Positions 54,954 through 64,000 of a stretch of DNA of 64,000 nt are shown here, piece by piece; within the stretch, counting starts at the first letter, position 1, and each line of letters opens with the position of its first letter. Location of the stretch: NCBI GenBank assembly GCA_041665525.1, contig JBAYIS010000003.1, positions 150,129 to 214,128 on the forward strand, written 5' to 3'. The notes below the pieces were generated by a model. The model searched no databases. It was not told the DNA's origin and was given only the letters and a program-made list of their open reading frames with translations. The translations under genes and the position numbers were made by a program. This DNA comes from Bacteroidota bacterium. GTDB lineage: Bacteria > Bacteroidota > Ignavibacteria > UBA10030 > UBA8401.

Positions 54954-55646
54954 GTGAACGGTTTGTAGATTGTTGTAAAACAGTTATTGGCTATTCACGG
55001 GATGAGAAGATTGTTACGCATTTAAATAAACGAGATTACGGCCAGCACCTTCTGGCTTTGCCAAAAACATTATACCACACTTCATTTTTCCATACCACAG
55101 TCCTTTTCCCTCACATTAATTATTTTCTCGACATACATTCAGAATAATCGAATTTGCCACAATGGTGTATCCACCATTGTAGCATAATTATAGTGTGCAA
55201 AGATCTTGCTCATACCAAATATTAAAATCCATGGCGCCTAATCAATATCAGGAAATTAGTTCCGGTAGTTTCTTCAACCTTAAAACAGTGACGAATACAG
55301 AATATTCCTTGAAGATTTCTTGATTCGAGTTTGAGACTCCCCTTGAAGGTGATTCGAATTCTGTGGTGGGTAATAAATGCTTGAAAAACGAGAACTGTTC
55401 GTCGGATATTTCATTTTGTTTGTACCGCGCCTAACATACTTAACCATTTTTCCCTGAAAAAGTCTGAATATCATTTTTAAGATTACTTCTCTGTTATTAA
55501 TAAAAAAAAGCTTTAAGATATTTTTATCTCCTATTAATAAATTTTAAATCAGATACTTTTATCGCGATTGACAGCAGATAATAAATTATTTATTTTTAAA
55601 ATAGTTCATGTATATAATTTGTTGCCACAACAAATATTAAATAAAT

Positions 55647-56631
55647 ATGAACTCACTTTTGCATATCCTACCTAAGGTATTCCTTCCTGCAATTAGAATA
55701 ATAATTGCAATTATTTTTATTTTATCTGGATCATTAAAATATTTAGATATTAACGCCTTCCAAAATTCCATTAAAAGTTTTTGATATTTTATTTTTCATT
55801 GACCCAATATTTGTTTCGATTCTTATACCAGCCTTAGAAATAGTTTTGGGTTTCCTGCTATTGTTTTCATTTAAAATAAGAATGACTGTCTCTTTAATTT
55901 TGGTACTTCTGAGTTTATTCACATCAGTTTTACTTGCACAAATAGATAACAATACTAATATTTCATGCCAGTGTTTTGGGTTTTTAAGTGATGGTAAAAT
56001 TACAACAGCAACGATATGGCGAAATGTATTTTTGATTTGTTGCAATATTTTTATTTTAGCAAATAGTGGAGAAATACCGAATAAAATGCAGTTAGTTCAA
56101 TCCATGCGATATTTTTTCATATTATTTATTTTAACACAATCTCTAGCCTTATCTCTTGAAAACAAAATCCTTAAAGAAAGGCTTTTGATTTTAACGTCTG
56201 GATTAGAACTAAAACCTGGTGACGAAATAGATGAACTAGTAGTTTTTTCAGATCAACTGGATACTAACATTATAAAGCCAAATAATAGTAAAAAGAAAAT
56301 CATAATATTTGCTGTAAAGAAAGATTGTTCATTTTGTAAAGAGAATTTAAAGCCGTGGAGGAAAATTATTTTGATGGCCAAGAAAGAGACATACAATGTT
56401 GTAATAATTTCACCAGATTCAATAAATATTCTAAAAAATTATTTACAGGAATACAATTTAAAATACGATTACTTGTCTGCGTCAAATAAAGAATTAATGA
56501 CAAGGTTAAAGATAAAATCAGTTCCACAAACTATCTTCATAGTGAATGGAATTGTAAAGAAAGTATTGCGTGGAGTTTTGACTTCGGAAGATGTTGATGT
56601 CATTTTTAGAAATATTAACTATTCTCAATAA
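55647..56631 (+). pseudogene. MauE/DoxX-like membrane thiol-oxidoreductase fused to TlpA-like thioredoxin domain, interrupted by an apparent +1 frameshift in a T5 run at 55778-55782
   Basis: ORF-a (55647-55784) reads MNSLLHILPKVFLPAIRIIIAIIFILSGSLKYLDINAFQNSIKSF*. The +1 frame then continues DILFFIDPIFVSILIPALEIVLGFLLL...CQCFG...KKDCSFCKENL...SVPQTIFIVNG. The N-terminal portion matches the MauE family, which contains a conserved CxCFG motif. The C-terminus is a thioredoxin fold with a CxxC active site and a cis-Pro loop. Removing one T from gttttt restores a single 327-aa ORF. Confidence 0.55.
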
Positions 56632-56649
56632 AAACATTTTGAAGGTAAT

Positions 56650-56973
56650 ATGCATTCAAAATATTTGTCCTTTGCGATAATTATTGTTTTAGCATTCTCA
56701 GTTATTCAACTTTCTTCTTCAAATTCTACATTTAGTGAGACATTGCAACCTTGTTGCAATCTTGATTATTGTACTTCGTTGGATATGAATTGTGGAGACT
56801 ATACAAGCGCACAGTTTTGGGAATTTGATTGCTCTGACCAAACTATAACCTGTAGACAATGTGTAGATTACACAGTATCTGGCTGTTTATGTTCAGGAGG
56901 AAGCCAAAGATGTAAAGAAAACAATGGAAGTTATTATTATGGAAATCACGTTTCTTGCAGCACGAGTAAGTAA
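56650..56973 (+). CDS. Small secreted cysteine-rich protein (13 Cys in about 80 mature residues)
   Basis: 107 aa. Signal peptide MHSKYLSFAIIIVLAFSVIQLSS; mature part contains CC, CxxxxC and CxC pairs. 18 nt downstream of the thiol-oxidoreductase gene, on the same strand, in the same AT-rich island. Confidence 0.55.
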   Translation: MHSKYLSFAIIIVLAFSVIQLSSSNSTFSETLQPCCNLDYCTSLDMNCGDYTSAQFWEFDCSDQTITCRQCVDYTVSGCLCSGGSQRCKENNGSYYYGNHVSCSTSK

Positions 56974-57096
56974 AAACCAAATATCGAATATGAACATACA
57001 AAAATGTAATAGTGCGCAAAAGTTTTGTGTCGTGTAAAATAATATTGTTAGGTGAGTTTTTTAGTTGGTTAAAGTGTAACAAATATTCTCTTTTTT

Positions 57097-58380
57097 ATGA
57101 AAAAATCCAGCAAGTGGATATATATTATTATAATTATAGTTTTCCACACTCTTTTATTAAAAGGGCAATGGATTTCTCAAAAAGGTAGTTTGCCATCATT
57201 TTTAGGAGGACTTAAAATTGATTCATGTGATTCATTAACTGCGGTTGTTGCGTTATCTCCTTCAATGATACTCCGATCCCTTGATGGCGGAAAAGTATGG
57301 TCAAAAATAGGATCATATAGCGCAATTGATATTTCCATGGTAGATAGTTCTCATATATGGATTGGCACATTACAAGGAGATATAATGAGCACTACTAATG
57401 GTGGCATAGAATGGATTAGACAATTCCATGATCCGACAATAACAACGTATATCATTTATATTAAAATGTTTAGTTTAGGTAGCGGAGTTGCAGTGGGAGA
57501 GGGGTTGACGGGTACGTTACCTTTAGTCGTATTACAGACTAACGACGGTGGTATTCATTGGACTTCAGTAAATGATTCTGCATTTGGTGGTTACTCAGCC
57601 GACGCTTGGAGGCGCTTACAATTCAGTTCACACTCTACCGGATATGTTTGGCCTTATGGAAAAGATATATCCTCATTATGGAAAACAATAGATGGAGGTG
57701 TAACTTGGAATAATTTGCATGTTCCAGGAAATCTTCAAGTATTAAGATTTTATGATGATACTTTTGGCATTGCATGCTTTAATAATGCTCCAACTACGAC
57801 GGGTCTCTCTATCCGGCGAACAATTGATGGGGGAAATACATGGGAAGTTCTTGTTCCCATATTTAATGGTTTTTGGGGAACTGATTTTGAGTTTTGTCCT
57901 AACGATGCAAAAAAAATTTGGTTTACTGATAATCAAAAATTATTTTTTAGTGTAGATTCTGGAAGATCTTGGGATGAAAACTTTTTAATTAAGGGTACTG
58001 ATATTATCTTCACCGATTCTTTGAACGGATGGGTGATTGGTAACAATGATATCATACATACACAAAACGGTGGTTTGTTATCAATTCACGAATCAGATAA
58101 CTCGAATCCACTAAAAACTTCTTACATGTTATTCCAAAACTATCCAAACCCATTTAATCCTACAACGACCATTAAATATTCTCTATTGCAAGATGGTGTC
58201 GTACAATTAAGAGTATATGATATGCTTGGCAGATTAGTGAATGAATTAGAAAATAAAACTAAACGTTCTGGAGATTATTCTGTTGAATTTAATGCAGACA
58301 AATTATCCAGTGGAATCTATTTTTATAAATTAAATTATGGAAATAATATCCAAGTAAAACGAATGGTTTTTTTAAGATAA
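57097..58380 (+). CDS. BNR/Asp-box repeat protein with C-terminal T9SS sorting domain
   Basis: 427 aa. Signal peptide. At least six SxDxGxTW-like repeats (TNGGIEW, TNDGGIHWT, TIDGGVTWN, TIDGGNTWE, SVDSGRSWD, TQNGG). The C-terminal roughly 80 aa (NPFNPTTTIKYSL...GIYFYKL...VKRMVFLR) matches a type A T9SS sorting domain. Confidence 0.7.
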   Translation: MKKSSKWIYIIIIIVFHTLLLKGQWISQKGSLPSFLGGLKIDSCDSLTAVVALSPSMILRSLDGGKVWSKIGSYSAIDISMVDSSHIWIGTLQGDIMSTTNGGIEWIRQFHDPTITTYIIYIKMFSLGSGVAVGEGLTGTLPLVVLQTNDGGIHWTSVNDSAFGGYSADAWRRLQFSSHSTGYVWPYGKDISSLWKTIDGGVTWNNLHVPGNLQVLRFYDDTFGIACFNNAPTTTGLSIRRTIDGGNTWEVLVPIFNGFWGTDFEFCPNDAKKIWFTDNQKLFFSVDSGRSWDENFLIKGTDIIFTDSLNGWVIGNNDIIHTQNGGLLSIHESDNSNPLKTSYMLFQNYPNPFNPTTTIKYSLLQDGVVQLRVYDMLGRLVNELENKTKRSGDYSVEFNADKLSSGIYFYKLNYGNNIQVKRMVFLR

Positions 58381-58404
58381 TACGGTTGATCTAAATCCCA
58401 ATAA

Positions 58405-59541
58405 CTATTTCTTTCCGTACATAAACATCAACGGCCGCCACACCCGCTTTGCCCAGGATTGTTCATTGTGCGAACCCAGAGAATCCAGCGTATATTCCAG
58501 GTCCTTTCCTTTCTTATATCCTTTCGACTTTAAGATCTCCGTCATCCTTTTATATCCGCTGATAAGTTCCTTTTCGCGGCCGCCGCAATCGAGATAGATC
58601 TTTATGTGTTTTTTACTGCCGGTGTATTCGCGTACTTCTTTCAGCGTTTTTTCATTGTCAAACCAAAAAGCGGAAGAAACGCAACCCGCCATGCCGAAGA
58701 CTTGGGGGTGTTTCCAGACAAATAATAAGGACGACAAACCGCCGAGTGATGAACCGATGACTCCCGTATGTTCCCTGCCCGGCTTTGTTCTATAGGTAGA
58801 ATCAATCAGCGGTTTTACGACACTAATCACAAAATTCATATATGCTGTTCCCAGATCCGTGTCGGAATATTCCGGCAATCGGTCCGGTGAGTTATAGATG
58901 CCAACGACGATAATCTCTTCGATTTTCTTCATCTTAATAAGGCTGTCCGCCACTTCATCCACCCGCCAGTCGTGTCCGGTAAATGCTGTGGAAGGGTCGA
59001 AAATGTTTTGCCCGTCGTGCATGTACAGTACGGGATAGAATTTCTTCGGGTTCTTCTCATAGGATGGTGGTAACCAAACGATAATATCCCTCGCATGAAT
59101 GAGTCCTTCGCCCCGGAGCTGTCGATGATAATCCACTTTTCCTCGAATGGCCTGTTCCGGTTTTTTCGGTAGGATAGAACGTTTCCAAAATAAAGGGCGG
59201 AGAATCACTATGGTGTCTTTCGTTACTTCAATGAATGTGTTTTGCGGAATTGCACTGCTGTCATATATCGCTTCCGATTCCCAGGAACCTGCAGTCACTT
59301 TGAATTCCAGAAGTGCACCTTTCTTCACGGATACGGCAATTTTCCAAAGAGAATCGTTCACTTTCTTTAATGCAACAGCAGAAGGATTCCAGTTTCCGAG
59401 TTCCGGAAGGTTCCCTGCGATAAACACTGTATTTTGCGAATCGCGCGCATCACCGGTCAATTCAACTGCAATCGTCACGTTCAACATTTGTGCGCTTGCA
59501 CAATGAACAAACAGCATCAGCAGTATTCCGGACATTCTCAT
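58405..59541 (-). CDS. Esterase (Fes/putative-esterase alpha/beta hydrolase family) with N-terminal CBM20-like carbohydrate-binding domain
   Basis: 378 aa with a signal peptide. The N-terminal about 100 aa resembles a starch-binding domain (VFIAGNLPELGNWNP...LWK...EFKV). The catalytic part has VLYMHDGQNIFD and GSSLGG (GxSxG). Confidence 0.65.
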   Translation of the reverse strand: MRMSGILLMLFVHCASAQMLNVTIAVELTGDARDSQNTVFIAGNLPELGNWNPSAVALKKVNDSLWKIAVSVKKGALLEFKVTAGSWESEAIYDSSAIPQNTFIEVTKDTIVILRPLFWKRSILPKKPEQAIRGKVDYHRQLRGEGLIHARDIIVWLPPSYEKNPKKFYPVLYMHDGQNIFDPSTAFTGHDWRVDEVADSLIKMKKIEEIIVVGIYNSPDRLPEYSDTDLGTAYMNFVISVVKPLIDSTYRTKPGREHTGVIGSSLGGLSSLLFVWKHPQVFGMAGCVSSAFWFDNEKTLKEVREYTGSKKHIKIYLDCGGREKELISGYKRMTEILKSKGYKKGKDLEYTLDSLGSHNEQSWAKRVWRPLMFMYGKK

Positions 59542-59591: not shown

Positions 59592-59633
59592 TCCAAAAAT
59601 AAAAAATCCGCCCTGCAGGATGCAGGACGGATT
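59592..59633 (-). terminator. Rho-independent terminator downstream of the 5-6-heme cytochrome gene
   Basis: 13-bp stem with one mismatch, aatccgccctgca-gga-tgcaggacggatt. On the minus transcript it is followed by uuuuuuauuuuu. Confidence 0.65.
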
Positions 59634-59673: not shown

Positions 59674-60771
59674 TTATTTCCGCATTTCAGAGATAGAAGC
59701 GCGTAACAGACCATTTGCATACTTGGTGTTATGAATACCTTCGCTCAGATCATGCTCTAACAGGAAATAATTCCAGATTGCGCCGGCATGCCGGGCAAGA
59801 ACTGTTTTGCCTGACTTCGGTGTATTCGCAACTGTATCAACCCATCCTTGAGCAACAAGAAGTGTTCTCAAAGTGTCCATGTTCGCCTTCACTTCAGTCA
59901 TTTTACCGTTATAATCCAGCGATGTCAGCGGTGCTGCGCTATGGCAATCAGTAATATTGCAACCAGTGAGGTTATCGCCTTCTTCTTCATTGCCGATCAT
60001 CATGGTATGGCCGCCGGTCAAATCGCCAGCTGCATCAGCCATATGACAAGTTTTGCAACCGTCAGTTTTCAGTTTTGCTGCGTTGGTATGCGGCGAATTA
60101 TTGTAGGTGTAACCGGGCCATTCGAATCCGCCCTCTCCCATCAACACTTGTCCCTGCACGCCGTAATGTGAATACCAGCGGGAAGGAATTTTAATGGAAT
60201 CTGTTGCGCCAATTTTGGCAATATCCAATTTTGTTGATTGAGTGCGGGGATGATGGCACGATACGCAAAGGTTACCCTTGCCATAATCAAATGTAGCATC
60301 TGCCACGCCTGTGATATTGGAGAACAGCGTAACAGGAGCAACTGTACGGAGCGAGAAATCTCCGTTCTTGTGCGGTGAATGGCACGCAAAGCAACCGACC
60401 GGTGTCGTGTTGTTGTTCGCAACCAGCGTTACGCCGAGTTGTTTTTTCACATAACCTTCAGTGGTATGGCATTCTGCGCAACTGGTTCTATTTTCGAATG
60501 CGGTTCCGCCGACAGCATGTTTGGATTTTGCATATTGGAACGTTGCAGCTGCTTTATACAGCGTTGTATCCGTATCCGGATTATGACACGTAGCGCACTT
60601 TAAATCCGCTTTGAAGCCTTCGAAGTACACAAAGCCTGCGTCTTGTCCTGCAGAGCCTGTTGCACCGTCTTTACCTGCCGGTCCTGCAGGACCTTCGCAA
60701 GCAACGAGACCGAAGAGAGCGATAACGGTTAGAACAGTTAAGATGTTTTTCACTGTTTTAACTCCTTTCAT
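59674..60771 (-). CDS. Multiheme c-type cytochrome lipoprotein (5 CxxCH plus 1 Cx4CH) with a collagen-like GXY linker
   Basis: 365 aa. Lipobox LFGLVAC, then GPAGPAGKDGATGSAGQDAG (six G-X-Y triplets). Heme motifs CATCH, CAECH, CFACH, CVSCH, CKTCH and the variant CNITDCH. Confidence 0.8.
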   Translation of the reverse strand: MKGVKTVKNILTVLTVIALFGLVACEGPAGPAGKDGATGSAGQDAGFVYFEGFKADLKCATCHNPDTDTTLYKAAATFQYAKSKHAVGGTAFENRTSCAECHTTEGYVKKQLGVTLVANNNTTPVGCFACHSPHKNGDFSLRTVAPVTLFSNITGVADATFDYGKGNLCVSCHHPRTQSTKLDIAKIGATDSIKIPSRWYSHYGVQGQVLMGEGGFEWPGYTYNNSPHTNAAKLKTDGCKTCHMADAAGDLTGGHTMMIGNEEEGDNLTGCNITDCHSAAPLTSLDYNGKMTEVKANMDTLRTLLVAQGWVDTVANTPKSGKTVLARHAGAIWNYFLLEHDLSEGIHNTKYANGLLRASISEMRK

Positions 60772-61034
60772 TAATGAAGTGTGTTGTTCCTTTTTAGTGA
60801 ATATTGGCTTACCGTTAATTGAGATAAGTCAAACTTGTTTTAAAAACTACCATTTCATCGGCAAATTATGTGCCGAAGAAAAGAGGCAAAAATGTTGAAT
60901 TTTCCCACATGGCTCCGTTCAATTTCTTAAGGTTGCAACTGATTCTTAAAGTAATTTTGCATTAATGAGAGCATGAAACGACAAAATGCTCTGTATTCAT
61001 TGGAGAAAAATCATACTAAAGTCTCTGATAAAAC

Positions 61035-61066
61035 AAAAAAGTCCTGATTTAAACAGGACTTTTTCG
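61035..61066 (-). terminator. Rho-independent terminator ending the omp-cytochrome-cytochrome operon
   Basis: aaaaaagtcctg-atttaaa-caggacttttt, a symmetric hairpin. On the minus transcript it is followed by uuuuuuguuuu, about 50 nt after the 61118 stop. Confidence 0.65.
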
Positions 61067-61117
61067 TTCGCTTACATCGATATGAATTTAGAAAATGCAT
61101 AGGCATTAATCTATCGT

Positions 61118-61930
61118 TTAATCAATTTTCCCATTAATGTGTTTTGAAGGATTGATGATAGCCATACTTGCGTTAACAACTGCACCATGACATGACGAAC
61201 AATCCGCCGTTACCGAAACGAAAGTATGTCCGGAAACAGGAAATGCTTTTTCCTTAGTGGTTGATTTTGTCGCATCTCCGTGACAAGTACCGCACGCAAC
61301 CGCAGTACTCGAAGTATCGGTCCAGGTCATGGTACGATTGAGATTGCCACCGTTGAAATTACCGTGACAGTAAGTATTGGCACACGATACGTTGGACGCA
61401 TTATAGATCGCATTGGAACGATACATCGATAGTGTGGTATCGAACCGTACTTCTGCCTTCGAATCAGAACCAAGATGTCCGGTTGCAGCAACTGTTGAAG
61501 GAACCGCATGGCATGTAGAGCATGCGACATCAGCACCGAGTGTTCCCTGCGTTACATGCTTTTGATGCGCTCCCACAGTTCTGATTGTGCTATTCGTATT
61601 TCCCAGCAGATCCTTCCATTGCACTTCCACATCGCTCGCATGACACGTTCCGCAATATTCCGGTCCATTTGGTTTTGAGTGGCAGGTCAGACAGGTTTGC
61701 CCTGCGGTCCCGCCATCATACGCAAAGCCGTGGCAGCTTTTACATGTTTGTGTATTCCATCCATTATTTTGCAGGAGTTTCTGGTGGGACTGTTCAGATG
61801 CTGCATTTGCAAAACCAACTCCATGAACGGAAAGGTTTCCCTGCGCAGGATTCTTATCGTCCTGCACTTCACTGCAGCCGACCAGCATCAGACCGAAAAT
61901 CAAAACGACGAGAGGAGTAAATTTTTTCAT
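61118..61930 (-). CDS. Multiheme c-type cytochrome lipoprotein (6 CxxCH plus 1 Cx4CH)
   Basis: Likely start MKKFTPLVVLIFGLMLVGCSE (lipobox). An ATGA overlap with the upstream 14-heme gene stop and a GGAG sequence 10 nt upstream support this start. Heme motifs CKSCH, CLTCH, CGTCH, CSTCH, CANTYCH (Cx4CH), CGTCH, CSSCH. Confidence 0.8.
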   Translation of the reverse strand: MKKFTPLVVLIFGLMLVGCSEVQDDKNPAQGNLSVHGVGFANAASEQSHQKLLQNNGWNTQTCKSCHGFAYDGGTAGQTCLTCHSKPNGPEYCGTCHASDVEVQWKDLLGNTNSTIRTVGAHQKHVTQGTLGADVACSTCHAVPSTVAATGHLGSDSKAEVRFDTTLSMYRSNAIYNASNVSCANTYCHGNFNGGNLNRTMTWTDTSSTAVACGTCHGDATKSTTKEKAFPVSGHTFVSVTADCSSCHGAVVNASMAIINPSKHINGKID

Positions 61931-63141
61931 TGTACGTTCGCTCCATGACAATATCCGCAGAAGTTCTGACCGGCTTTTCCGTTCGGCCGTGCATTCGCAT
62001 CCGTGTGGCAGACAAAACAGTTGGAAGCTGCATCGTCATGCCAATCACCCTCCGCATCCCTCATAAATCCTATGGCATGTGTCTTCGGGTTCGTTCCCTT
62101 TATCCCATCGTTGTCTGCATGGCAGGTGATGCAGGTTGGATCGCCCCCTTGAGTGTCGTGGCACGACGCGCAGCTTTGAATATCGCGTTTTGCCAGAGTT
62201 GCATGCATCCCGCCGCCGGAGCCGACACCGAATGTCGTGAATCCAAATTGTTCATGGCTCGTTGGTACAGCGCCGCCTAAGGCTGCGCTGCCGTTCATGT
62301 GGCAATCACTGCAAAAGGTCTGCTGTCGGTGACAGGTCTGACAGTCGGCAGAGCGTCCTTTCGCGTCGATGCCGTGTGTAAATTTGTAGTTCAGATCGTG
62401 AACATTCTGTGCAGCCATTGCCGAGGGGGCGTCATTCCCGAATTTCCGCGGAGACATCATACCGGTCTTTTCGAACTTCGAGAGTTTCGTCAGATTTGTT
62501 CCATCGTGACATTCCATGCAGGTCGATTCTGTATGGCAGCTTTGACAGTTTGCATCGAATGTCCGTCCGTTCATTACACGGGAATGTTCACGTTTAAAAT
62601 TCGCCACAGTATGCGAGGCAGGGCGCAGTGCCGTAAGATTTGTATGGCACGCTTCACATTGATTGGATGCTTTCACGTTGTTATGGCAAGTGTTGCATGT
62701 TGCCATCGAAGGATTGTTTGACGCTTCAGCAAAATCCGTTTTATCCATACCGGCGTGACAGGTGATACATTCCACTTTCTGATCCACCACATGTTTTTGA
62801 TGATCAAAGAGAATCTCTCTGACCGGATTCGGTAGTGCAACAGGATTGTTCTCATCCGTATGGCAGAATCCGCACGTTTCGTTCACTTCTTGTTCGTGGC
62901 AGGATTGGCACTCCGTGTGTGTTGGCAGCATCTTTTCGGATGCGTTTTGTGTCAGTTTTTCCGGAGTATGACAGGAGGAACATTCGATCCCTGCCGTGGC
63001 ATGTGTACTGTGCGAAAATTTCAGCACTTGTTTTTTGTCGACTGGCGCATCGTCGCTTGCCACAGCACTGCTGCGGTTGATAAAGACCAGCGCGATCATG
63101 GCAGTAACAATAGAAGCTATCAGGAGGCTTTTTTTCATCAT
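61927..63141 (-). CDS. Periplasmic 14-heme c-type cytochrome
   Basis: 14 CxxCH motifs in about 400 aa (CSSCH, CQSCH, CGFCH, CITCH, CNTCH, CEACH, CQSCH, CMECH, CQTCH, CSDCH, CASCH, CITCH, CFVCH, CGYCH). Signal peptide MMKKSLLIASIVTAMIALVF of signal-peptidase-I type. Its start overlaps the stop of the upstream beta-barrel gene (aTGAtg). Confidence 0.8.
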   Translation of the reverse strand: MMKKSLLIASIVTAMIALVFINRSSAVASDDAPVDKKQVLKFSHSTHATAGIECSSCHTPEKLTQNASEKMLPTHTECQSCHEQEVNETCGFCHTDENNPVALPNPVREILFDHQKHVVDQKVECITCHAGMDKTDFAEASNNPSMATCNTCHNNVKASNQCEACHTNLTALRPASHTVANFKREHSRVMNGRTFDANCQSCHTESTCMECHDGTNLTKLSKFEKTGMMSPRKFGNDAPSAMAAQNVHDLNYKFTHGIDAKGRSADCQTCHRQQTFCSDCHMNGSAALGGAVPTSHEQFGFTTFGVGSGGGMHATLAKRDIQSCASCHDTQGGDPTCITCHADNDGIKGTNPKTHAIGFMRDAEGDWHDDAASNCFVCHTDANARPNGKAGQNFCGYCHGANVQ

Positions 63142-64000
63142 AACCAATTCAATTGTTCGCTGAACCAATAGTTCAATTTAAGGAATATACGCATATCACT
63201 TTTATACTGCGGATTGCTCATCCATTGCACCTGCAAGTCCGAGGAGAGTAATCGGTCCGGACGATAGTTGACGCCGACGGTCCCGTTCACAACATCACTG
63301 GACGGGTCATTCTTCGAAAGTTTGTATGTCGCATATCCAATTGCGCACATCGGAGTCAGTTTCTGATCCATCATCGGATAAACCGCTTGAACAGATATTC
63401 CGTTCAGCTCTCCTGCATATCCAAAATTCTGCGTATAGACGGCAGAGAACATGTCATACGTCCCCCCCACGACCAATCGCTGGCTATTGTCGTCCACATA
63501 CTCAACATTGGCAAACCGCGCATAGACAAACGTTTTTGCGAGCGGCCTGTATTCCACCCCCCCTTCGATCTCTTTTGTGCTGTTGATATTAAACACCGAG
63601 AAGATAGAATTGTATGCCACTCTCGGTTGTCGATAAATATATTCCGCCGTCACATTCAGTTCCGGCATTATACCCACGCGGGCGAACGTTTGCAATTTGG
63701 AGATCTCTTCAGAATGGAAATCAAAATCCGTTTTTGCCTGTACGGTGAATTGTTTTTCAAGCTGATATTCCACATCCAACGATGCCAATTCCTCTTCATT
63801 CGGCCGGCTGTTGACAACTATTGAATAAGGATTGAAAAGTGAATCCAACCGAAGCGCCGTATACGGTTTGCGCTGCCAGCGTTTGTTCATGTAACTGAGT
63901 CCGACGATCGCTTCTTCCGTCGCCGCATACGTTACCTGTCCGCCGAACAAACCATTCGTGCCGATATAGTTCTTCCTGATGTCGCGTGATTGGATCACAT
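63138..64000 (-). CDS. Outer-membrane beta-barrel protein (partial; N-terminus beyond window), candidate porin of a porin-cytochrome complex
   Basis: More than 286 aa. Alternating hydrophobic/polar beta-strand pattern with Tyr/Gly/Asn-rich loops and an aromatic-rich C-terminus (LKLNYWFSEQLNWL). Translationally coupled to the 14-heme cytochrome. Confidence 0.5.
   Translation of the reverse strand, partial: VIQSRDIRKNYIGTNGLFGGQVTYAATEEAIVGLSYMNKRWQRKPYTALRLDSLFNPYSIVVNSRPNEEELASLDVEYQLEKQFTVQAKTDFDFHSEEISKLQTFARVGIMPELNVTAEYIYRQPRVAYNSIFSVFNINSTKEIEGGVEYRPLAKTFVYARFANVEYVDDNSQRLVVGGTYDMFSAVYTQNFGYAGELNGISVQAVYPMMDQKLTPMCAIGYATYKLSKNDPSSDVVNGTVGVNYRPDRLLSSDLQVQWMSNPQYKSDMRIFLKLNYWFSEQLNWL

Follow-up and report, generated by a model that had tools for sequence, protein, structure and literature searches.

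We analyzed a stretch of 64,000 nucleotides (referred to as the window) from a Bacteroidota bacterium of the class Ignavibacteria (contig JBAYIS010000003.1, positions 150,129 to 214,128). The end of the window carries, on the minus strand and in the order of transcription, the 3' part of the gene of a predicted outer-membrane β-barrel, the gene of a secreted cytochrome with 14 CxxCH heme motifs, that of a lipoprotein with 6+1 heme motifs and, separate from these, that of a second lipoprotein with 5+1 heme motifs. Most likely, the locus forms the distal part of a gene island for extracellular electron transfer that is of the porin-cytochrome (Pcc) type and comes from an Ignavibacteria-class member of the FCB group. 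Positions refer to the window unless they are preceded by a locus name.

The barrel gene lies in the window with the C-terminal 287 codons of a 426-residue protein (63138–64000, minus strand), the first 139 codons being located past the window end. This frame is open at the window edge and contains no cysteine-rich motifs. It is followed by the gene of the 14-heme cytochrome c (61927–63141, minus strand), which encodes 404 amino acids with 14 CxxCH motifs and a Sec-type signal peptide without a lipobox, and by the gene of the 7-heme lipoprotein (61118–61930, minus strand; 270 amino acids, six CxxCH and one CxxxxCH motif, lipobox LVGC). Both junctions, barrel/14-heme and 14-heme/7-heme, are 4-nt ATGA overlaps. 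An intrinsic terminator consisting of a hairpin and a U-run (61031–61069, minus strand) closes the operon. It has a folding energy of -21.7 kcal/mol (z = -5.6), and none of 200 shuffled sequences folded as well. The 6-heme lipoprotein gene (59674–60771, minus strand; 365 amino acids, five CxxCH and one CxxxxCH motif, lipobox LVAC) ends at a terminator of its own with a 13-bp stem and a T-run (59605–59633, minus strand; -25.3 kcal/mol, z = -6.6, 0 of 200 shuffles folding as well). The gene layout given in the original prediction, which was made from the window alone, agrees with these data in heme counts, signal sequences and lipoboxes, as does the linkage of the first three genes by overlapping stop and start codons ahead of a closing terminator. 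When the whole window is translated in all six frames (128,000 codons), 25 of the 32 CxxCH motifs fall in frame within the approximately 1,040 codons of the three cytochrome genes. The heme motifs are therefore not a product of chance.

To follow the operon past the window end we used 10 kb of adjoining DNA (locus L001) from the 638-kb metagenomic contig to which an exact-protein look-up assigned the window (ENA ERZ27249449, k141_1295741). There, the barrel gene is preceded, with a 1-nt overlap, by the gene of a small, secreted cytochrome of 171 amino acids (L001:8209–8724), which matches the Pfam family Cytochrome_C554 with 64 bits. The operon therefore comprises four genes, in the order small cytochrome (171 amino acids), barrel (426), 14-heme cytochrome (404) and 7-heme lipoprotein (270). 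The three coupled genes originally proposed as an operon are thus retained as parts of a larger one. The first heme site of the small cytochrome reads C-A-C-H (CxCH) and is one residue shorter than the usual CxxCH. This form (FVGxNxCACHNLPK and variants) is kept in approximately 25 aligned species loci, mostly those of the closest relatives, while homologues at greater distance show the normal CxxCH at the aligned position. To our knowledge no c-type heme attached via CxCH has been described. The site may bind its heme in an unusual way or may have lost it.

These genes are kept together in essentially every related genome. A scan of one genome per species yielded 147 relatives of the barrel, and we examined synteny in the best 79 loci, as far as enough DNA was present. 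All of these 79 loci belong to metagenome-assembled genomes (MAGs) of the Ignavibacteria type, including some labelled Ignavibacterium album and Melioribacteraceae. Directly downstream of the barrel gene, 70 out of 70 loci carry a homologue of the 14-heme cytochrome gene, down to a barrel identity of 33%. The next gene encodes a homologue of the lipoprotein cytochrome in 63 out of 64 loci, and the single miss is an artefact of the distance threshold. The small cytochrome is found upstream in 64 out of 72 loci. Heme numbers are conserved as well: 14 (or 13+1) in the first multiheme protein and mostly 6+1 or 5+2 in the second. A homologue of the 6-heme lipoprotein lies downstream of the operon in 25 of 56 loci. 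Co-conservation of barrel, 14-heme protein and lipoprotein cytochrome had been named as a check on the original prediction, and the three genes are indeed kept together.

The N-terminus of the barrel, which had to be sought in the neighboring DNA, completes a protein of 426 amino acids with a signal peptide ending in ...SVSASA|Q. An AlphaFold2 model calculated from an alignment of 38 sequences (predicted local distance difference test, pLDDT, of 80) is all-β, with 22 long strands and no plug. The mature chain of approximately 406 residues is wholly taken up by the strands, and one of the loops holds a short hairpin. Judged from the geometry of such a barrel, the lumen would be approximately 30–35 Å wide and would offer the space that is filled in TonB-dependent receptors by a plug domain of about 150 residues. 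A general porin of 16 or fewer strands and an OmpA-like domain, which had been raised as possibilities speaking against the original prediction, are ruled out by the 22-strand, plug-less model. The same holds for a TonB-dependent receptor or a fragment thereof: Pfam searches gave no Plug or TonB_dep_Rec match, the model leaves no room for a plug, and the likeness is confined to the geometry of the barrel.

To classify the barrel we employed sequence and structure searches. The family comprises 212 clusters at 90% identity, nearly all of approximately 425 amino acids, labelled hypothetical and derived from Bacteroidota/Ignavibacteriales MAGs. An exhaustive profile search yielded 434 representatives at 50% identity. 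The most distant named relatives are hypothetical proteins from Marinimicrobia and Handelsmanbacteria, with no Geobacter protein among them. A few members carry the Pfam domains OMP_b-brl or Porin_4, and UniRef lists one distant relative as 'alginate export domain-containing'. The structure searches returned only generic outer-membrane barrels. The 18-strand Occ/AlgE porins align over only about 260 residues, and the best query coverage in Foldseek was obtained with the usher barrels FimD and PapC. These usher barrels have 24 strands.

The signal peptide of the 14-heme protein is cleaved at ...SSAVA|SDD. In 30 homologues all 14 CxxCH motifs are invariant, together with 13 further conserved histidines (11 invariant, two nearly so) and an invariant methionine, M146. 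The 13 histidines and M146 thus provide one candidate distal ligand for each heme. Over its N-terminal third, the protein shows similarity to triheme units of the c7 type and to ActA, the pentaheme subunit of alternative complex III (E-values from 2.5e-8 to 2.6e-6). Family searches resulted in generic c7/c3/ActA-like matches only, and the scores with more specific models remained low: 35 bits with HmcA (cut-off 400), 18.4 bits with DmsE/MtrA (cut-off 192.2) and 14 bits with NrfH (cut-off 134). We propose that this protein serves as the electron wire leading from the periplasm into the barrel.

The 7-heme lipoprotein contains exactly 14 histidines for its seven hemes, and the histidine counts of both this protein and the 14-heme cytochrome fit electron-transfer hemes that are all bis-histidine ligated. 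It matches TIGR01904 (CxxxxCH/CxxCH domain), a domain defined on Geobacter cytochromes, with 42.3 bits at a cut-off of 27. Among 55 homologues the lipidated cysteine is followed by a conserved motif, C-S-E-L-K-(N/D/E)-(D/E). The corresponding residues encoded in the window (61853–61876, minus strand) read C-S-E-V-Q-D-D-K, and the homologous positions lie in loci L003–L081. The conserved motif recalls the K-(D/E)2 signal for surface export of lipoproteins in Bacteroidota, a likeness we treat as a lead only. The 7-heme lipoprotein is proposed to be the terminal reductase of the conduit at the cell surface.

Profile and PDB sequence searches gave no enzyme family match for the 6-heme lipoprotein. 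It scored 21 bits with the octaheme tetrathionate reductase model (cut-off 375), 16 bits with NrfA (cut-off 595) and 22.5 bits with TIGR03508 (cut-off 192.2). A collagen-like G-X-Y run, GPAGPAGKDGATGSAGQDAG (60634–60693, minus strand), comprises residues 27–46 and begins two residues past the lipidated cysteine. Four to nine G-X-Y triplets are present at the same place in 22 of the 28 homologues listed, in numbers that differ among species; four of the six listed homologues that lack the run are open reading frames starting inside the gene. As a candidate tether, the run may act as a spacer holding the cytochrome off the membrane. We propose that the protein is an accessory surface cytochrome expressed from its own transcription unit. 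Its gene may start at GTG 60753 instead of ATG 60771 (region 60751–60771, minus strand). The sequence AAAGGAG is located 8 nt 5' of this GTG, and a close homologue (L005) starts at the equivalent position, resulting in a more typical lipoprotein signal peptide of 19 residues.

The original prediction assigned a promoter and a terminator to the 6-heme gene. The terminator stands, but a sigma-70 scan detected no promoter in the intergenic region before the gene. The organism probably uses promoters of the Bacteroidota type. We observed, however, a motif of 14 nt, CGGCACATnATTTG, that occurs exactly twice in the 21-kb locus. One copy (L001:8141–8154, plus strand) precedes the small-cytochrome gene, with which the pcc operon begins, by 55–68 nt. 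The other, CGGCACATAATTTG (60862–60875, minus strand), lies 91–104 nt upstream of the 6-heme gene and belongs to an imperfect palindrome, CGGCA-N7-TGCCG. Orientation and position of the motif are kept upstream of homologous genes in 18 further genomes. It is best read as a candidate promoter or operator element shared by the two transcription units. Because CGGCACATnATTTG fronts both of them, the 6-heme lipoprotein would belong functionally with the operon.

A run of genes for inner-membrane electron-transfer proteins is located upstream of the pcc operon on the same strand (L001:1–7999). It includes a pair of Rieske protein and cytochrome b, the latter with 235 bits to cytochrome b6 and 207 bits to ExtP (cut-off 290), and a translationally coupled 11-heme protein with a C-terminal membrane anchor. 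A membrane cytochrome of 498 amino acids with NapC/NirT homology contains seven heme motifs and begins this series with a CxxxCH. The combination has been published as the hallmark of ImcH, a quinol oxidase of Geobacter, and we refer to this protein as ImcH-like. In two further, CbcL-like proteins (710 amino acids, and 933 amino acids with 19 hemes), a multiheme domain is fused to a b-type cytochrome domain (Ni_hydr_CYTB / formate-dehydrogenase-gamma-like). In the relatives, the 11-heme protein was found next to the operon in 44 of 55 loci, the ImcH-like protein in 33, the CbcL-like protein in 31 and Rieske/cytochrome b in 22 of the 55. Together with the pcc genes the upstream genes form an island of approximately 14 kb, through which electrons from quinol could reach the cell surface.

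In its gene content the cluster agrees with Pcc systems: next to the barrel gene lie the genes of a secreted, non-lipoprotein cytochrome with 14 hemes (5–14 in Pcc clusters) and of a multiheme lipoprotein cytochrome. The architecture of barrel, periplasmic multiheme and lipoprotein multiheme cytochrome that had been recognized in the window is thus borne out, with support from the size of the barrel, the synteny and the absence of an enzyme match. The novelty implied by calling it a distinct conduit does not hold, as clusters of this type have been described from genomes of this phylum since 2014. Shi, Fredrickson & Zachara 2014 described pcc clusters in six phyla, with porins of 18–22 predicted strands (PMC4245776). 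In I. album JCM 16511 they list IALB_1840 as an associated periplasmic cytochrome, IALB_1839 as porin-like, followed by a periplasmic cytochrome of 400 amino acids with 14 heme motifs (IALB_1838), and IALB_1837 as an outer-membrane cytochrome with an atypical heme motif (PMC4245776). Gene order, the 14-heme cytochrome of about 400 amino acids and the outer-membrane cytochrome with the atypical motif (IALB_1840–1837) are all as in our locus, and the lineage is shared at the phylum level. The same layout is present in a MAG labelled I. album (L062) and in the Melioribacteraceae loci. For the MAG labelled I. album, identity to the proteins described here ranges only from 36% (barrel) to 48% (14-heme), and the likening to the type-strain cluster rests on architecture and family membership. 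The tethered 6-heme lipoprotein and the ImcH-like, CbcL-like and Rieske/cytochrome b neighbors found here are not described for I. album in that survey (PMC4245776). 'OmbB-like' or 'Geobacter-like' pcc clusters have further been reported in Ignavibacteria MAGs and in Melioribacter roseus (PMC7399161, PMC6137239), and a Bacteroidetes cluster of six multiheme cytochromes and one barrel has been called uncharacterised (PMC8258643).

The OmbB-OmaB-OmcB system of Geobacter sulfurreducens (and OmbC-OmaC-OmcC; Liu et al. 2014) has the same three-part design, with a barrel of about 20 strands and genes located side by side. Both its porin and the barrel described here are much smaller than MtrB. The distribution of hemes, however, is reversed: eight periplasmic and 12 surface hemes in Geobacter versus 14 periplasmic and seven surface hemes here. 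Ignavibacteria porins have been classed as OmbB-like by hidden Markov model searches (PMC7399161), and the I. album porin and cytochrome fall outside all five Geobacter-centered phylogenetic groups, to which they are only distantly related (PMC4245776). The Geobacter Ext systems (ExtABCD, ExtEFG and ExtHIJKL(-MNOPQS)) likewise combine a barrel, a periplasmic multiheme cytochrome, small lipoprotein cytochromes of the CxxxxCH type and a neighbor of the cytochrome b/Rieske type. All Ext equivalog models remained below their cut-offs for the proteins described here, and no rhodanese (ExtH) is present. ExtA and ExtG contain 12 hemes, compared with 14 in our cytochrome.

With MtrCAB of Shewanella (PDB-entry 6R2Q) and with MtoAB/PioAB the cluster shares only the working principle proposed here, a barrel-sheathed wire capped by a surface lipoprotein, and it is not a member of that family. 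MtrB comprises approximately 650–700 amino acids and 28 predicted strands, compared with 426 amino acids and 22 strands here. In its solved structure MtrB has 26 strands. The proteins had been considered not to be MtrABC homologues, and this is in line with the low score of the 14-heme protein with the MtrA/DmsE model, with the absence of any match to TIGR03507 (MtrC/OmcA) among the window proteins and with the strand number of the barrel, which is too small.

Based on the gene content and the models we propose the following mechanism. The quinol-oxidizing ImcH-like, CbcL-like and Rieske/cytochrome b proteins, the latter with the 11-heme protein, would reduce periplasmic carriers including the small cytochrome. 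Inside the barrel, the 14-heme protein would form an insulated heme wire across the outer membrane and would pass electrons on to the surface-exposed 7-heme lipoprotein. This protein and the apparently co-regulated 6-heme lipoprotein on its short collagen-like tether would then reduce acceptors that are insoluble or located outside the cell, for example minerals of Fe(III)/Mn(IV), an electrode or humics. We regard an outward porin-cytochrome electron conduit as the likely function of the cluster. Our data show the gene content, the heme motifs and sorting signals, the size of the barrel, the strict synteny and the upstream motif shared by both units, whereas we infer that the proteins form a complex, that the cytochrome is inserted into the barrel, that the lipoproteins are exposed at the surface, and also the direction of electron flow and the substrates. 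Enrichment of Ignavibacteria that carry clusters of this kind has been reported for anodes and for settings with Fe(III) reduction (PMC7399161, PMC6137239, PMC8258643).

Several points weigh against this assignment. The barrel has no Pfam or NCBIfam family match in profile searches. An AlphaFold2 model of the 14-heme protein alone, based on an alignment of 30 sequences, has a mean pLDDT of only 53, is confident only up to residue ~155 and is unreliable. In the literature we found no experimental work on this cluster in any member of the Ignavibacteria. The multi-omics paper on M. roseus contains nothing on iron reduction or on these genes, and the paper on the I. album genome is likewise silent on them. 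According to Shi et al., a pcc cluster does not prove Fe(III) reduction (PMC4245776): I. album has one, yet is described as a chemoheterotroph, and Kuenenia also has one. Furthermore, the direction of electron flow cannot be read from the sequence.

The last point leads to the alternative that the same conduit runs inwards, as in MtoAB/PioAB. Fe(II), a cathode, a syntrophic partner or reduced humics would then be the donor, and the electrons would end up in the quinone pool or at a terminal reductase in the periplasm. Such conduits are reversible in principle, and Fe(II) oxidation is often followed by a module like the adjoining Rieske/cytochrome b complex. Bacteria that do not reduce iron, for example Kuenenia, also possess Pcc clusters (PMC4245776), and the clusters of some Ignavibacteriales MAGs have been interpreted as 'mto-like' (PMC6137239). 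By the criterion used in the same study, however, oxidizing systems of the Mto/Pio type usually lack a surface lipoprotein cytochrome (PMC6137239), which is present here. In addition, ImcH-like and CbcL-like proteins, quinol oxidases in Geobacter, are encoded upstream in 31–33 of 55 loci, and the cultured relatives reduce Fe(III) and do not oxidize Fe(II) (PMC7399161, PMC6137239). We therefore consider inward flow to be unlikely.

Slightly less probable still is an outward conduit dedicated to non-mineral acceptors, i.e. selenite/tellurite, arsenate, elemental sulfur/polysulfide or humic substances. It would account for the similarity of the cytochrome b, which is nearest to ExtP of the ext operon for selenite/tellurite reduction in Geobacter, and for weak matches to ExtN, ExtO and ExtS. 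Pcc clusters are also known from sulfur- and selenate-respiring bacteria (PMC4245776), and arsenate and nitrate reducers are found among the Ignavibacteria (PMC7399161). Every Ext match, however, remained under its curated cut-off (207 bits versus 290 for ExtP), and no molybdopterin or rhodanese gene was observed within 10 kb upstream or 10 kb downstream. Such a conduit would differ from the outward one proposed above in its substrate only, which the sequence cannot settle.

That the genes form no conduit at all, the barrel being an ordinary diffusion porin or exporter co-transcribed with periplasmic cytochromes for electron storage or detoxification, is very improbable. The absence of a diagnostic family for the barrel, its merely generic structural matches and the relative named after alginate export would fit such a role. 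The invariable adjacency of barrel and 14-heme gene down to 33% barrel identity, together with their translational coupling in the window operon, argues against it, as do 22 strands without a plug or long constriction loops, which make the barrel far larger than a diffusion porin, and the conserved export-type N-terminus of the partner lipoprotein cytochrome. The least credible possibility, a respiratory enzyme of the periplasm (a reductase of nitrite, hydroxylamine, tetrathionate or sulfite) to which the cytochromes would belong as subunits, could draw only on very weak local matches to models of NrfA, NrfB, NrfH, octaheme tetrathionate reductase and HmcA and on PDB sequence matches to NrfA over about 50 residues (E-values of 0.01 or weaker), and is effectively refuted by scores far under all cut-offs (at most 21 bits versus 134–692 for the models of these reductases, with best scores of 15–21 bits versus 375–692 for the NrfA/HAO/Otr/MccA group), by the absence of CxxCK or any other catalytic-heme motif from the window cytochromes and by histidine counts that fit bis-histidine electron-transfer hemes. 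A check for orthology to nitrite, hydroxylamine and sulfite respiratory enzymes had been suggested at the outset; none of the cytochromes reached any model of these or of tetrathionate reductase.

Returning to the outward conduit, it is conceivable, though we would not count on it, that it represents an independently assembled class and not a diverged Geobacter Pcc, i.e. a third structural solution beside Mtr and Geobacter Pcc. Such a class would be marked by a plug-less barrel of 22 strands from a family without a Pfam or NCBIfam model and by a 14-heme wire of sufficient length to bridge both the periplasm and the outer membrane, so that shuttle proteins would hardly be needed, if at all. Its surface lipoprotein would bear an export motif specific to the phylum, an accessory cytochrome under joint regulation would be held off the cell on a collagen-like tether of variable length, and a conserved operator of the CGGCA-N7-TGCCG type would exert control.

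Ignavibacteria are abundant in aquifers and sediments and in hot springs, as well as in activated sludge and the biofilms of anodes. The locus provides a complete example of the conduit of this phylum and a basis for a sharper gene signature in metagenome surveys of iron and electrode respiration. It is also a target for structural work: the majority of the hemes are located in its periplasmic part, opposite to the arrangement in OmbB-OmaB-OmcB of Geobacter. The concept as such is unchanged, porin-cytochrome conduits having been predicted in the phylum since 2014. New are the four-gene operon, the model of a plug-less 22-strand barrel, the synteny over approximately 70 species, the quinol-oxidase neighbors and the upstream motif, as well as the conserved CxCH motif, the collagen-like tether and the N-terminal motif of the lipoprotein.

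Two further features were observed next to the cytochrome genes. Directly downstream, a gene on the minus strand (58405–59541) encodes an esterase that is secreted and carries a starch-binding domain of family CBM20 at its N-terminus (Pfam CBM_20 and Esterase). This esterase has no evident link to the cytochromes. Beyond this gene, a low-GC island (approximately 55000–58400) has a GC content of 26–35%, compared with 44–50% on its flanks. It contains genes for a MauE/DoxX-like domain fused to a thioredoxin-like AhpC/TSA domain (55846–56631), for a small secreted protein with 14 cysteines (56650–56973) and for a BNR/sortilin-like protein with a type IX secretion tail (57097–58380). This island may be a horizontally acquired cassette.

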